From: an uncultured bacterium
Lineage (GTDB): Bacteria > Verrucomicrobiota > Verrucomicrobiia > CAIQCK01
DNA: 64,000 nt
Reading direction: 5' to 3'
Assembly: GCA_903870275.1 (NCBI GenBank)
Contig: CAIQCK010000103.1
Location: forward strand, 3,819 to 67,818
Below are positions 24,582 through 29,605 of this stretch, in pieces; position 1 is the stretch's first letter, and each line of letters opens with the position of its first letter. The notes beneath the pieces were generated by a model, which was given only the letters and a program-made list of their open reading frames with translations, was not told where the DNA came from and searched no databases. The position numbers were made by a program, and so were the translations under genes.

Positions 24582-25829
24582 ATGGCAGAGGGACGACGGG
24601 TAGTCATTACAGGCATGGGCGTGGTTTGCTCGCTCGGGCAGACCATTGATGCCTTCTGGCGCGCGCTGATCGCCGGCGAGACGAAGGTGGACCGCATCAC
24701 CGCGTTCGATCCGACCGCCTTCGACTGCCAGATCGCCGCCGAGGTGCGCGACTTCAACGCCGCGCCGTTCTTCAACATGCCGAAGGACGCGCGCCGCAGC
24801 GACCGCAATATCCAGTTCGGCGTCGCGGGCGCCAAGCTCGCCGCCCAGGACTCCGGCCTCGATTTCTCCAAGGAAGACCTCGACCGCGCCGGCTGCTGCA
24901 TCGGCTCCGGCGTCGGCGGCCTTTCCACCTTCGAGCAGCAACACTCGATCCTCCTCCAAAAAGGCCCCTCGCGGATGTCGCCGTTCACCATCCCGATGAT
25001 GATCGGCAACATGGCCAGCGGCATCGTCTCGATGGAGCTGGGCCTGCGCGGGCCGAACTTCGCCCCTGTCAGCGCCTGCGCCACCAGCAACCACGCCATC
25101 GGCGAAAGCGCCCGCAACATCCGTCTTGGCGATGCCGACATCATGGTTGCCGGCGGCACCGAGGCCACCATCCTGCCCACCGGCATCGGCGGCTTCGCGG
25201 CCATGAAGGCCATGAGCACCCGCAACAGCGACCCCAGGCACGCCAGCCGCCCCTTCGACAAGGACCGCGACGGCTTCGTCATGGGCGAAGGCTCCGCCGT
25301 CGTTGTGCTGGAGGAACTCGAGCACGCCAAAAAACGCGGCGCGCGCATCTACTGCGAAGTCGTCGGCTACGGCCAGACCGCCGACGCGTATCATATCACC
25401 TCCCCTGCCCCCGGCGGCGCGGGCGCGGCCCGTTGCATGAACAACGCCCTCAACAACGCCGGCCTGCGGCCCGACCAGATTTCCTACATCAACGCCCACG
25501 GCACCTCCACCGAACTGAACGACAAGTACGAGACCGCCGCCATCAAGACCGTCTTCGGCGAGCACGCGAAGAAAGTGGCCATCAGCTCCACCAAGAGCAT
25601 GACCGGCCACATGCTCGGCGCCGCCGGTGCCATTGAGATGATCGCCTGCGCCATGGCCATCACCCACGGCATCATCCCGCCGACCATCAACTACCAGACG
25701 CCCGATCCCGAGTGCGACCTCAACTACACGCCCAACACCGCGCGCGAGTTGAAAGTGGACGCCATCCTCAACAACGCCCTCGGCTTCGGCGGCCACAACT
25801 GTTCGCTCGTCGCCAAGCGGTTTGTGTAA
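24582..25829 (+). CDS. fabF: Beta-ketoacyl-ACP synthase II
   Basis: 415 aa. Active-site Cys (PVSACATS), [13 protein letters not shown] and NALGFGGHN motifs. This is the canonical FabF. Confidence 0.95.
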
Positions 25830-25958
25830 GCGCCTTCCCGGGAGCGCGGGCATCCTGCCCCCCGACGTTCACGCGCAGGCGCAGCCAGTTAGAAGGCGGT
25901 TGATGGAACCGTCTCTGTTGCGACCACTTTTTTTATCCATACTTTATTCGAACGCAGC

Positions 25959-26792
25959 ATGCAATTTACCATCGTCACACCCAGCTTCAGGAATTCTTCC
26001 TGGCTTAAGCTGTGCATCGCCTCGGTGGCCGACCAGGGTGTGGAGGCGGAACACATCGTCCAGGACTCCTGCTCCGATGACGGCACGCAGGACTGGCTGC
26101 CGCACGACTCCCGCGTCATCTCCGTCATCGAAAAGGACACGGGCATGTATGACGCGGTCAACCGCGGATTCCGCCGCGCACGGGGGGAATTGCTGGCCTA
26201 TCTCAACTGCGACGAACAATACCTTCCCGACGCTTTGCGCAAGGTAAGCCGTTTCTTTGACCAGCATCCCGGCGTGGACGTGATTTTCGGCGACACCGTG
26301 ATCGTCGGCCCCCAGGGCGAATACATCTGCGAGCGCCGCGCGCTCCTGCCCCATCGCCTCCATACCCTCATCAGCATGAACCTGAGTTTCCTCACGGCCG
26401 CCACCTTCATGCGGCGGCGGGTTTTTCATGAACTCGGACTCCACTTCGATCCAAGCCTGCGTGACGTGGGCGACGCCGAATGGACACTCCGTTTGCTCAA
26501 GGCTGGAGTGCGCATGGCGACGATGAAAGAATTGACCAGCGCGTATACGGAGACAGGAACCAACATGAGCCTCGGCCCGAATATGGCTCGCGAACGGGCT
26601 GTCTTCGCCCAAACCGCCCCGCTGTGGGCGCGCACACTGGCCCCGTTCCTCGTGGCCTATTTCCGGTCCCGCCGATGGCGCGCGGGGCATTACCGCTGCC
26701 AACCGCATTCGTATGTCATCTACACCAAGGACGGCCCCAACGAGCGAAAGCTCTTCCAAGCGAACCAGCCGACCTTCCGATGGTCGCGGTGA
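25959..26792 (+). CDS. Family 2 glycosyltransferase
   Basis: TIVTPSFRNSSWLKLCIASV, DSCSDDGT and NCDEQY (DxD-type) motifs. 277 aa. Confidence 0.75.
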   Translation: MQFTIVTPSFRNSSWLKLCIASVADQGVEAEHIVQDSCSDDGTQDWLPHDSRVISVIEKDTGMYDAVNRGFRRARGELLAYLNCDEQYLPDALRKVSRFFDQHPGVDVIFGDTVIVGPQGEYICERRALLPHRLHTLISMNLSFLTAATFMRRRVFHELGLHFDPSLRDVGDAEWTLRLLKAGVRMATMKELTSAYTETGTNMSLGPNMARERAVFAQTAPLWARTLAPFLVAYFRSRRWRAGHYRCQPHSYVIYTKDGPNERKLFQANQPTFRWSR

Positions 26793-27130: not shown

Positions 27131-27199
27131 CACCGCTTGTCCGCGTGACTTCCCCCGCCCCTTCTGGTAGAAACGCCGCCAAGGAGAGCGGCAGAGACG

Positions 27200-29605
27200 A
27201 TGAAGAAGTGGCTGAAGATTCTGTCTGTGGTATTGCTCGGGGCTCTAATGGCAACGGGCGCGTTCTTCGTCGCCAAACCGGCAAGGATGCCGGTGTTCCA
27301 ATCAACTTCTGTTTTCCGGCATTATCACACTTTGTGCGTGCCTTACCGCCGACCACCGGCGCTTGATGCGGCCGAAGCAACCCCCATATTGGAACACGCC
27401 ATCCAGCGAATCCGCCAGCGCCTCTTTAAAGCCCGCAATCGTTTGCCGGCACTGTCGGAAATAGACAAAGCAACAATCAAGGGATGTGACTTCACATATC
27501 GGAAAGGAGACGTCTCCCGCGATGAGACAGGCAAGCGGGTTTTTGATCCGCCGGATTCCTGCTACTTGTCCCTGCATGCCGAATATCCGTTCTGGGAATC
27601 AATGATGCTGTCAGTTGTTCCAAAGGAGTATTCAGTGTATGGGGATTGTTTTGCTGTCTACGCATCGGTAACTACGGAAACCGGTCAGTCCGAGATTTAC
27701 AAAATAATTCAGCAGGAAATGGACCGTGCAGTTGAAGAACTCCAAACGGCGGTCCGGTCCAAAATGCTCAAGGCAGGGGAAGGAATCTTTCTGGCCGTCA
27801 GAACCAGCGACGCCGCAAAGGTGGAGCAGTTCCTGGCCCGCAAACCCGAGTTGGCCAATGCCAAAGACACCCATGGGCTTGCGCCGCTTCATTGGGCACA
27901 AGACACGCGCGTTGCGGAGTTGTTGCTGGCGAAGAAAGCCGATGTTACCGCCAAAGACAACTTCGGTCTCACGCCCCTGCACTGGGCGGTCTATAATGGC
28001 CGCTTCGAACTCGTAAAACTGCTCGTCGCCAACAGGGCCGACATCAACGCCAAAACCACCGATGGCTGGACTCCCACGGACCTCGCCGAGGAACTGTACG
28101 GTGAAGCCGGGAAAGCAACGTCTTTTCTTCTCCAGCACGGCGGAATTCCTGGCCTGCCCGACGCAAGATTGATGGTAGTTCTTAGATGGCTCGACAAAAC
28201 GCACTTGAAGCGAGCGCTGCAAATGAAACCTAATTTCGTTGCCCTGAAGGACGAACAGGGGCGCACCGCACTGCATCACGCAGTTTTATCTCGCAACAGA
28301 GAAGCGGTGGAACTGCTTTTGAACGCCGGCGCGGATCCCAACATCAAGGACAATTATGGAAACACGGCAATATTGACGCCAAATGTCATGGTTGATCCAA
28401 AACTGCTGGAACTGCTGCTGACTCACAAGGCCGACCTCAACGTCATGGACGAGAAAGGCCGGACGCCTCTCGACCGTGCACTACTGGATCATGCATCAGA
28501 AATCGTCGCTCTTCTTCGCAAATACGGCGCCCAGAGAGGAGTAGAACCCCTTCGCAATACCATAATGCAACAAGACATGGGCGAACTGAAAGTATTGCTG
28601 TCATCCCAAACGGTTGACGTCAATAAGAAGGACCGTTATGGCAGTTATCCCGTTCATCTTGCGGTGTTTTACAAAAACATCGAAATGCTGAAGCTGTTGC
28701 TGGATCACAACGCTGATCCCAATGTCAGGGACAAAGAAGGTTATACATTGTTCCAAGTGTTCCTCGGATCCAAAGAAATGATGGCTTTGCTGATCGCCCA
28801 CGGAGCCGATGTTAACGCCAGAGACGGGTGGGGTGCCACGGCGCTTCATCATGCAGTCGGACTTATCAACAACAAGGAAGCCGTAGAGTTCCTCATTGCC
28901 AACAAGGCCGACGTCAACGCTGAAGACAAGAATGGCTGCACACCTTTGGATCGCGCATTTCGGCACAGCTCTAACCCGCATCACAGAATTGTGATTGATC
29001 TTCTTCGAGAGCACGGTGGCATATTCAAGAAATACCAGAAAGAAGCCAGCATCATGGAGTCACACCTCAAGAGACGGCAGTACATAATGGCTGGGATGCC
29101 TCTCTTTCCATACGGTTTAACAAACATAATTATTCGCCCGTTGCCGATAGTCCGCAAAAAAACATCGCTTACTCCTATTCAGGATATGGAGTTGCGGAAC
29201 ATGCCGGATGTGAAGGCCGCCAGCGAAGCACTGTCGGAAACTGGCAAAAAGTCTGCCAACGTGAGAAGAGCGACAATGTCCAAACTGGGATATCACATTG
29301 AGTCTCGCACTAATGGCACGTCGAATGTCGGGACAAGCGTATTCCGTGGGTGGTTTACTGCCGATGGGGAGCGGGTGACGACCAAGCAATTGACGGAATT
29401 CGACGATTTGCCGGACGTGAAGGCCAGTCGTGAAGCCACTGCACAAGCTGGCATGCTATACTGGGCAGTGAGGAGAGCAGCAACGACCACGCTTGTTAAT
29501 CAGACAGGTTATGGCACCAATCGCGCATCATCGGCGATTCAAGCACCGCCGGCGGGATCGGGCACGAATGGAGCGGTGCAGGTGAAGGGGAATGTGATGC
29601 GATGA
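27200..29605 (+). CDS. Secreted ankyrin-repeat protein (about 12 ANK repeats) with C-terminal tandem-repeat tail; low GC
   Basis: AAGGAGAG Shine-Dalgarno. Signal peptide MKKWLKILSVVLLGALMATGAFFVA. Repeated ANK consensus (G.TPLH.A...G....V.LLL..GAD.N.KD). Two C-terminal repeats, MPDVKAASEAL... and LPDVKASREAT.... GC is visibly below the genome background. Confidence 0.85.
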   Translation: MKKWLKILSVVLLGALMATGAFFVAKPARMPVFQSTSVFRHYHTLCVPYRRPPALDAAEATPILEHAIQRIRQRLFKARNRLPALSEIDKATIKGCDFTYRKGDVSRDETGKRVFDPPDSCYLSLHAEYPFWESMMLSVVPKEYSVYGDCFAVYASVTTETGQSEIYKIIQQEMDRAVEELQTAVRSKMLKAGEGIFLAVRTSDAAKVEQFLARKPELANAKDTHGLAPLHWAQDTRVAELLLAKKADVTAKDNFGLTPLHWAVYNGRFELVKLLVANRADINAKTTDGWTPTDLAEELYGEAGKATSFLLQHGGIPGLPDARLMVVLRWLDKTHLKRALQMKPNFVALKDEQGRTALHHAVLSRNREAVELLLNAGADPNIKDNYGNTAILTPNVMVDPKLLELLLTHKADLNVMDEKGRTPLDRALLDHASEIVALLRKYGAQRGVEPLRNTIMQQDMGELKVLLSSQTVDVNKKDRYGSYPVHLAVFYKNIEMLKLLLDHNADPNVRDKEGYTLFQVFLGSKEMMALLIAHGADVNARDGWGATALHHAVGLINNKEAVEFLIANKADVNAEDKNGCTPLDRAFRHSSNPHHRIVIDLLREHGGIFKKYQKEASIMESHLKRRQYIMAGMPLFPYGLTNIIIRPLPIVRKKTSLTPIQDMELRNMPDVKAASEALSETGKKSANVRRATMSKLGYHIESRTNGTSNVGTSVFRGWFTADGERVTTKQLTEFDDLPDVKASREATAQAGMLYWAVRRAATTTLVNQTGYGTNRASSAIQAPPAGSGTNGAVQVKGNVMR

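Follow-up and report, generated by a model that had tools for sequence, protein, structure and literature searches.

A glycosyltransferase gene between fabF and a displaced copy of its 3' end: a recombination scar in an uncultured Verrucomicrobiota population

In a 64-kb stretch of DNA from an uncultured member of the Verrucomicrobiota (contig CAIQCK010000103.1; here called the window, to which coordinates refer unless another locus is named), the 3' end of fabF, the gene for beta-ketoacyl-ACP synthase II, occurs twice, with a gene for a GT2 family glycosyltransferase (GT2) between the copies. How did a core housekeeping gene come to be followed by an accessory gene and then by a second piece of itself? 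An initial annotation had explained the arrangement as the scar of a small island that targeted the fabF 3' end. The scar was borne out by the analysis described here. Its leading explanation, held with about even confidence, is a one-ended homologous plus illegitimate recombination that joined a GT2-bearing and a GT2-less allele of the locus between fabF and the downstream ankyrin-repeat gene (the fabF-ank locus). The two copies of the fabF end are named X and X', and the genes and copies concerned are as follows.

24582..25829, + strand: fabF (beta-ketoacyl-ACP synthase II); intact, 415 amino acids (aa), stop TAA at 25827-25829, Pfam PF00109 and PF02801 (ketoacyl-synt N and C).
25717..25831, + strand: X, the functional copy; last 37 fabF codons, stop and 2 nucleotides (nt).
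25959..26792, + strand: GT2 family glycosyltransferase; 277 aa, intact open reading frame (ORF), PF00535 (E = 1.2e-16).
26887..27001, + strand: X', relic fabF 3' end, non-coding; starts 94 nt past the GT2 stop.

An offset comparison aligned X and X' without gaps at an offset of 1170, with 109 of 115 positions identical (94.8%). Neighbouring offsets gave 25-39 matches in 110, which corresponds to background, and the best offset other than 1170 did not exceed 39/110. The pair was the sole long two-copy repeat of its kind in the 64 kb (repeat finder family D5, 95%). The duplication around GT2 was thus confirmed by alignment, to within 1-3 nt of where the initial annotation had placed it, and the identities of fabF and of the gene between the copies were confirmed by Pfam. 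The six differences (base in X/base in X', numbered on X) were the following.

25750: T/C, Leu>Ser.
25780: T/C, Leu>Pro.
25787: C/T, synonymous.
25805: G/C, synonymous.
25823: T/C, synonymous.
25829: A/G, stop TAA versus TAG.

These differences were polarised with five relatives. In what follows, loci L081 to L083 are contigs of the same population as the window, and L084/L085, L086, L088, L089 and L092 belong to relatives. Of the three changes private to X', two are non-synonymous (Leu>Ser and Leu>Pro), and the Leu>Pro change hits a conserved FabF stretch; the two private to X are both synonymous. The stop difference was not polarisable, the fabF stop being TAA in L084 and TAG in L086, L089 and L092. 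The in-frame TAG of X' (26997-26999) had been described as a reconstituted stop, but it is better regarded as retained, since the same stop ends fabF in those last three relatives. Upstream, the frame of X' meets a TAG at 26850 and then no ATG, GTG or TTG before the homology begins, so that X' cannot be a gene. As judged from its sequence, X' is a decayed, displaced fabF 3' fragment, dead DNA, and 26887-27001 should be labelled a fabF pseudogene fragment and not a gene. Two synonymous states, AAA and TGT, were common to X and X' and absent from all five relatives; the source versions were therefore close relatives of each other, or one genome.

The identical FabF protein was found on 14 contigs from independent assemblies, all with similar gene neighbourhoods. 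L081, L082 and L083, from three assemblies of different samples, were 99.98% identical to the window over 15-21 kb, both copies included, and the gene spacing of the scar region was identical in a fourth assembly. The arrangement is real and not an assembly artefact, and the scar is fixed in the sampled population, being present on every sampled contig.

Relatives were collected via a protein database, cluster members and exact look-ups; the matches listed by a FabF search of genome contigs were all distant (67% identity or less) and unusable for comparison. Among the relatives found, the closest FabF proteins outside the window's own population were those of L092 (95% amino-acid identity), L084/L085 (92%) and L086 (91-92%). 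In L084/L085 and L086 the genes run in the order FIST, AAA, TPR, ExbB, ExbD, ExbD, FabG, ACP, FabF, ankyrin gene, GT4, GT9, sensor kinases. Synteny with the window holds on both sides of the locus, with the ankyrin gene 155-185 nt past fabF and GT2 absent. In L092 only the upstream side is syntenic, and GT2 is absent there too. L088 and L089, with FabF at 78-79%, have different genes downstream of fabF. GT2 remnants were sought in the 950-bp non-coding stretch that follows fabF in L092, in L084 and in L086, and none was found. The absence of GT2 from the site in the closest relatives indicates that this gene is extra DNA in the window's lineage.

The comparison proposed in the initial annotation, namely that related genomes should lack GT2 and have fabF followed directly by the flank of the second copy, thus came out as expected for L084/L085 and L086, where the ankyrin gene directly follows fabF; L092 is also without trace of GT2, and its downstream synteny is broken. 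Ordinary decay of a paralog had been named as the finding that would speak against an insertion, and no intact second fabF paralog was present at the site in any relative examined. With GT2 absent from the closest relatives and X' decaying, a recombination or insertion scar with a displaced, diverged 3' fragment stands.

What the scar joined can be read from the DNA that flanks each copy, which includes two families of repetitive extragenic palindromes (REPs), one of them arranged as a REPIN, a pair of inverted REPs.

25832..25868, + strand: motif B, locus-specific, with core GGGAGCGCGGGCATCCTGCCC; orthologous to post-fabF DNA in L084/L085 and L092.
25869..25958, + strand: 90 nt upstream of GT2; T-rich stretch, no counterpart in relatives (no blastn match).
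26846..26886, + strand: A_L, truncated decayed REPIN copy; left GTAG-REP arm (26846-26871) plus 15-17 nt of spacer, stopping at the novel joint.
27010..27033, + strand: REP2, second-family REP (GTAG-CCGCC-loop-GGCGG); 10 nt past the relic stop, same position as in L092.
27059..27130, unstranded: REPIN A, two inverted GTAG-tagged REPs; 26-nt arms (96% complementary), 20-nt spacer.
27131..27199, + strand: conserved ankyrin-gene upstream region, common to L084 and L086.
27200..29605, + strand: ankyrin-repeat protein gene (ank), Pfam Ank families; ancestral downstream neighbour of fabF by L084-L086 synteny.

From the stop of X on, the window reads TAA, GCGCC, TTCCC and then the motif GGGAGCGCGGGCATCCTGCCC, which also lies past fabF in L084 (the blastn alignment reaches window position 25868) and in L092. 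Motif B occurs once in the window, and in the loci retrieved it was seen nowhere but after fabF. Its reading as a dispersed repeat or as a terminator was rejected, the motif being unique to the locus and folding no better than shuffles. The succession of X and motif B, as in L084 and L092, means that X is attached to native locus DNA.

From the stop of X' on, the window reads TAG, 10 nt, REP2, TCATGTTCGCATCC, REPIN A and the conserved stretch upstream of the ankyrin gene. Past fabF, L092 reads TAG, 10 nt, a doublet of the same REP family and CATTCGTTCGC, and its positions 4692-4863 align without gaps to window 26889-27060 (172 nt, 86.6%), covering X' and the next 59 nt. Similarly, L086 reads TAG, CCATTCGTTCGCGCC and REPIN A and then has the ankyrin upstream DNA seen in the window; window 27034-27199 matches its succession of spacer, REPIN A and ank upstream DNA. 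These matches to L092 and L086 show that X' is joined to the GT2-less type of locus. L092 has all three elements, REP2, motif B and REPIN A, in that order past fabF, and neither L084 nor L086 has the full set; to judge from these layouts, the fabF-ank intergenic region is evidently variable among relatives.

Other DNA was seen in the same intergenic position. In L092, positions 4926-5870 form a non-coding stretch of about 950 nt past fabF with internal short repeats (for example CATTTGGCTTCGTTTCG and runs of the GGTCGGAT type); no gene was called in it, and it is not similar to the window. In L084, positions 9310-9390 hold an unrelated AT-rich palindrome (GAGTGAAGAGTGAAAAGTTAAGAGTGAAG...CTTCACTCTGCATTCTTAACTCTTAAC) in the slot occupied by REPIN A in the window and L086, possibly another miniature inverted-repeat element.

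The initial annotation had reported both palindromic repeat families at the junction, and both were recovered: the half element at 26846-26886, the second family at 27010-27033 and the inverted repeat at 27059-27130. The unit of the first, family A, is CTGTAG-CGGCGGTC-NNN-GACCGCCG, and that of family 2 is GTAG-CCGCC-(10 nt)-GGCGG. REPIN A is orthologous to the fabF-ank element of L086 and to positions 5871-5941 of L092, and its DNA fold reached -35.3 kcal/mol (z = -11.3 against shuffles). In A_L, two G>A changes abolish the hairpin, and its fold was no better than that of shuffles (z = -0.56).

An exact-pattern scan found family A in at least 120 metagenome contigs. Among the 142 occurrences in the matches listed, most had an inverted partner 6-45 nt away, and the inter-arm spacers differed wholly between loci in both length and sequence. 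Only four family A arms are present in the window. The A_L spacer (AGCTGTTCATTATCAAC) is identical at 14 of 17 positions to that of REPIN A (AAATGTTCATCATCAAC), 213 nt downstream, and is also similar to the orthologous spacers in L086 and L092. Since spacers are locus-specific and that of A_L matches the resident REPIN A, A_L is a copy of the locus's own REPIN and did not arise by a separate REP insertion. The 1,170-bp block, made up of X, motif B, GT2 and the half REPIN, therefore derives from a version of the fabF-ank spacer in which GT2 was already present, between motif B and REPIN A.

As published hallmarks, GTAG-tagged REPs and REP doublets, which are tied to RAYT transposases, have an unpaired GTAG ahead of a short palindrome, often pair in inverted orientation and lie after ORFs (PMC3733652). 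Both families described here have GTAG and a short hairpin, and family A is found mostly as inverted doublets, after ORFs and in many metagenome copies. They differ in that they occur in Verrucomicrobiota and in that a crude scan of all six frames of the 64-kb window for the P-[NDS]-H-x-H motif of RAYT (Y1 HUH transposase) gave no match. The REPIN was also considered as an integron attC site; this was rejected because no RYYYAAC/GTTRRRY core sites lie at the joint and the element belongs to the GTAG REP family.

A cluster of second-family GTAG REPs is located at 4392-4491, beside the end of mutS. The mutS region of L092, inverted relative to the window, is found about 3 kb past fabF and has second-family REPs at both edges (4796-4883 and 10739-10808); thus, REP clusters coincide with a synteny breakpoint. 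A second broken REP of the window, a truncated family A element at 9464-9480, keeps the CTGTAGCGGCGGTC head, lacks the second half of the hairpin and runs into AT-rich DNA.

The novel joint, marked here by a slash, reads TTCATTATCAAC/CTCAACTAC (in a longer view, ...GTTCATTATCAAC/CTCAACTACACG...). The intact REPIN spacer continues with AACCGG, fabF before the joint reads ...GTGCGAC, and 3 nt separate the break from the right REPIN arm. All that the two parents have in common at this point is AC, or C-N-AC (2-4 nt of microhomology). By these few shared bases, the joint is to be read as an illegitimate join at the level of microhomology and not as an att-type site.

In the explanation that we favour, one parent would have been GT2-bearing (fabF - TAA - motif B - GT2 - REPIN A) and the other GT2-less, with the layout seen in relatives (fabF - TAG - REP2 - REPIN A - ank). 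A DNA end in the REPIN A spacer of the GT2-bearing version would have been joined to the GT2-less version inside fabF, 111 nt short of its stop, and the other side of the exchange would have been completed by ordinary homologous recombination in shared sequence. The product would contain one working fabF, GT2 and two leftovers, the half REPIN (26846-26886) and the 115-nt fabF tail (26887-27001), both of which have since decayed. The exchange could have run in either direction with the same product: a GT2-bearing fragment entering a GT2-less genome, anchored on the left, or a GT2-less fragment starting in fabF entering a GT2-bearing genome, anchored on the right.

Several observations are in agreement with this proposal. 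The copies sit on different allele types, TAA with motif B for X and TAG with REP2 for X', and the relatives vary in the presence of each of REP2, motif B and REPIN A, as two alleles would need. Both anchors are available: on its left the block runs on unbroken from the intact fabF, and on its right the relic passes into REPIN A, the DNA upstream of ank and ank itself; each of these flanks has orthologous DNA in relatives. A two-allele model is the most economical, since it needs a single event and allele differences such as the relatives display. The participation of two alleles and not of sister copies, the identity of the resident partner and the route of DNA entry are matters of inference.

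Other results weigh against it. Neither a GT2-bearing allele without the scar nor a GT2-less allele of the same species was present among the 14 contigs with identical FabF. A metagenome pattern scan for the fabF end followed by 10 nt and REP2, a pattern meant to match alleles with and without the scar, was empty, the relevant samples being apparently outside that collection. Sliding-window identity from fabG to fabF against L084 and L086 gave no convincing tract boundary. In addition, the signal that X and X' are sister copies comes from just two sites, and the same pattern could result from gene conversion between X and X'. The joint would be identical whether two alleles or one genome were involved; these versions differ only in the number of later deletions. 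Lastly, the model does not account for the first arrival of GT2 in the fabF-ank spacer, which the scar does not record. With neither a parental allele nor a tract boundary found, the choice among recombination models rests on parsimony.

An intragenomic tandem duplication followed by deletions is unlikely. The ancestor would have had the order fabF - REP2 - B - GT2 - REPIN A - ank, and an unequal illegitimate exchange between sister chromosomes, pairing the REPIN spacer with fabF at 25716/25717, would have doubled a unit of 1.2-1.4 kb; the first unit would later have lost REP2, and the second motif B and GT2. This course leads to an identical novel joint and identical flanking repeats, and the two derived states common to X and X' are what copies of one genome should have. 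L092, for its part, is an example of REP2, motif B and REPIN A present together, in this order, after fabF. However, at least two further and neatly complementary deletions are required. GT2 would have to be ancestral and lost, or independently absent, in L084, L086 and L092, none of which yielded a remnant. The resemblance of the copy-1 flank (TAA, no REP2, TCCC-B) to L084 and of the copy-2 flank to L092 and L086 would, moreover, be a coincidence.

A Campbell-type integration is less probable still. A 1,170-bp circle (fabF tail - B - GT2 - half REPIN), illegitimately excised from a GT2-bearing chromosome, would have entered a GT2-less chromosome by a single crossover in the 115-nt fabF tail. 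A single crossover of a circle bearing a fragment of its target gives exactly the order X, insert, X', and the joint between half REPIN and fabF tail would be the closure point of the circle. Nevertheless, 115 nt is short for RecA-mediated integration, and a non-replicating circle of 1.2 kb is an unlikely intermediate. The end structure is the same as that of the one-ended recombination, and although a crossover within X predicts mosaic copies, six differences are too few to resolve them.

The island of the initial annotation, carrying a replacement copy of the fabF 3' end and integrated site-specifically by an integrase acting in trans or since lost, is very unlikely. Islands of tyrosine integrases enter the 3' ends of tRNA or protein genes, and a direct repeat of the gene 3' end brackets the added DNA while the gene stays intact. 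The present locus shares this classical signature, with a direct repeat from the 3' end of the target gene (115 nt, 94.8%) around added DNA and an intact gene, and the GT2 family is found solo in many unrelated contexts, which suggests frequent relocation. The likeness ends there, as the insert is a single gene, its ends are native to the locus and there is neither an integrase nor an att-like core. The block holds only the GT2 ORF, and the Pfam tables for window 14582-35829 (as L081) contain no integrase or transposase family, so the observation that no integrase is present held for the block and about 10 kb on either side. The suggestion of an island whose integration was mediated in trans was not supported, because motif B and the half REPIN at the block ends are native DNA of the locus and the joint is not att-like.

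The GT2 homologues likewise speak against such an element. The nearest ones outside the population have about 70% identity. Three of their contexts were examined, and in each GT2 is a single gene among unrelated neighbours and in no case beside fabF. Similarity of the window DNA to L090 and L091 ends exactly at the ends of the ORF, with no fabF fragment there. Foreign DNA reaching up to the repeats, or recurrence at the same target elsewhere, was thus not observed. The lack of a recombinase, the native block ends and the lack of recurrence together argue that this is no integrase-type island.

Finally, a chimera of two strain haplotypes created in metagenome assembly can be dismissed as barely credible: although the window's population is apparently known from metagenome assemblies only, the same arrangement occurs in at least three assemblies from different samples and the same gene spacing in a fourth, the joint offers no overlap of k-mer length for a graph assembler to follow, and the point changes in the relics break codon pattern and hairpin, as expected of real decaying DNA.

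As to the age of the event, the four-fold-site divergence of fabF between the window and L092 was 0.166 and X' has three private changes in 115 nt; very roughly, the event may date to a fraction of the time since the L092 split, long enough ago for its fixation on all contigs sampled. It could also be asked whether the REPIN directed the break, through cleavage of a hairpin or cruciform or through a RAYT-type nuclease cutting 3 nt from the foot of the right REP. We regard this as doubtful. The REP clusters at the L092 synteny breakpoint (window 4392-4491) are in line with it.

GT2 itself is an intact ORF in the window and in L081 to L083. In a 12,844-nt contig of the same population (ERZ1426818), it was called as two ORFs of 69 and 200 aa, the latter 100% identical, which suggests a nonsense or frameshift allele; GT2 may therefore be dispensable. 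Against NCBIfam, the best matches (TuaG, WcaE and others) fell far under the cut-offs, and no substrate was assignable. The GC content of the gene (0.614) and that of its third codon positions (GC3, 0.777) are inside the range of neighbouring genes, so that composition says nothing on foreignness. A promoter and terminator scan of the region gave nothing above shuffle expectation, with no sigma-70-like promoter in 25869-25958. In L090 (6848-6872) and L091 (1816-1840), from another Verrucomicrobiota genome, a second-family GTAG REP stands directly after the GT2 homologue of about 70% identity, which indicates that these REP families are common to fairly distant members of the phylum.

The ankyrin gene encodes 801 aa in the window, 248 aa in L084 and 446 aa in L086, and its GC (0.527) and GC3 (0.591) are far under the values of its neighbours. 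This gene evolves fast through gain and loss of repeats. Elsewhere in the window, a second lineage-specific insertion of about 3.4 kb (14698-18137) lies between the FIST-domain gene and the AAA gene, where L084 and L086 have only about 40-300 nt. It contains ORFs at 14812-16281 (- strand, 489 aa) and 16513-18084 (+ strand, 523 aa), with no Pfam match on record and no PADLOC match. A long diverged repeat array at 55800-57043 (period about 93 nt, 60-72% identity, families D1 and D2) is probably the coding region of a repeat protein.

The closest known process is homology-facilitated illegitimate recombination (HFIR), which is well documented experimentally (PMC3240628) and has been described for Acinetobacter, Pseudomonas stutzeri, Streptococcus pneumoniae and E. 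coli conjugation (PMC3240628; references 41, 42 and 47 in PMC5361080). The fabF-ank scar has its two structural marks, a microhomology joint (about 2-10 nt in HFIR, 2-4 nt here) on one side and a homology anchor on the other, with extra DNA trapped by a conserved gene. HFIR also takes two distinct parental molecules; at this locus the two copies sit on different allele types, with neither a parental allele nor a tract boundary found. It differs in that the process is deduced from a fixed natural scar and not from an experiment, and in that the "foreign" DNA would be another allele of the same locus. Displacement of the HFIR kind has also been held responsible for arrays found in nature in which displaced genes follow conserved upstream DNA, such as the orphan immunity genes in type VI secretion system (T6SS) clusters of Vibrio cholerae and the orphaned 3' regions of Rhs loci (PMC5361080). 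As in those arrays, a new module has come to follow conserved upstream DNA, and the piece formerly downstream has been displaced and kept. Unlike them, the piece kept here is a 115-nt relic of a housekeeping gene without evident function, after one round, with no array and no toxin/immunity logic.

The scar is an ordinary but unusually legible product of illegitimate recombination, and no new system is involved. It offers a clean natural case in which one accessory gene stands behind a core housekeeping gene without mobile-element machinery and the leftovers can be read at base resolution. As such, it may help studies of illegitimate recombination, or of the role of REPs in rearrangement, in uncultured Verrucomicrobiota. 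If the break was indeed directed by the REPIN, REP doublets in these Verrucomicrobiota would be preferred breakpoints for the capture or shuffling of neighbour genes such as the solo GT2.

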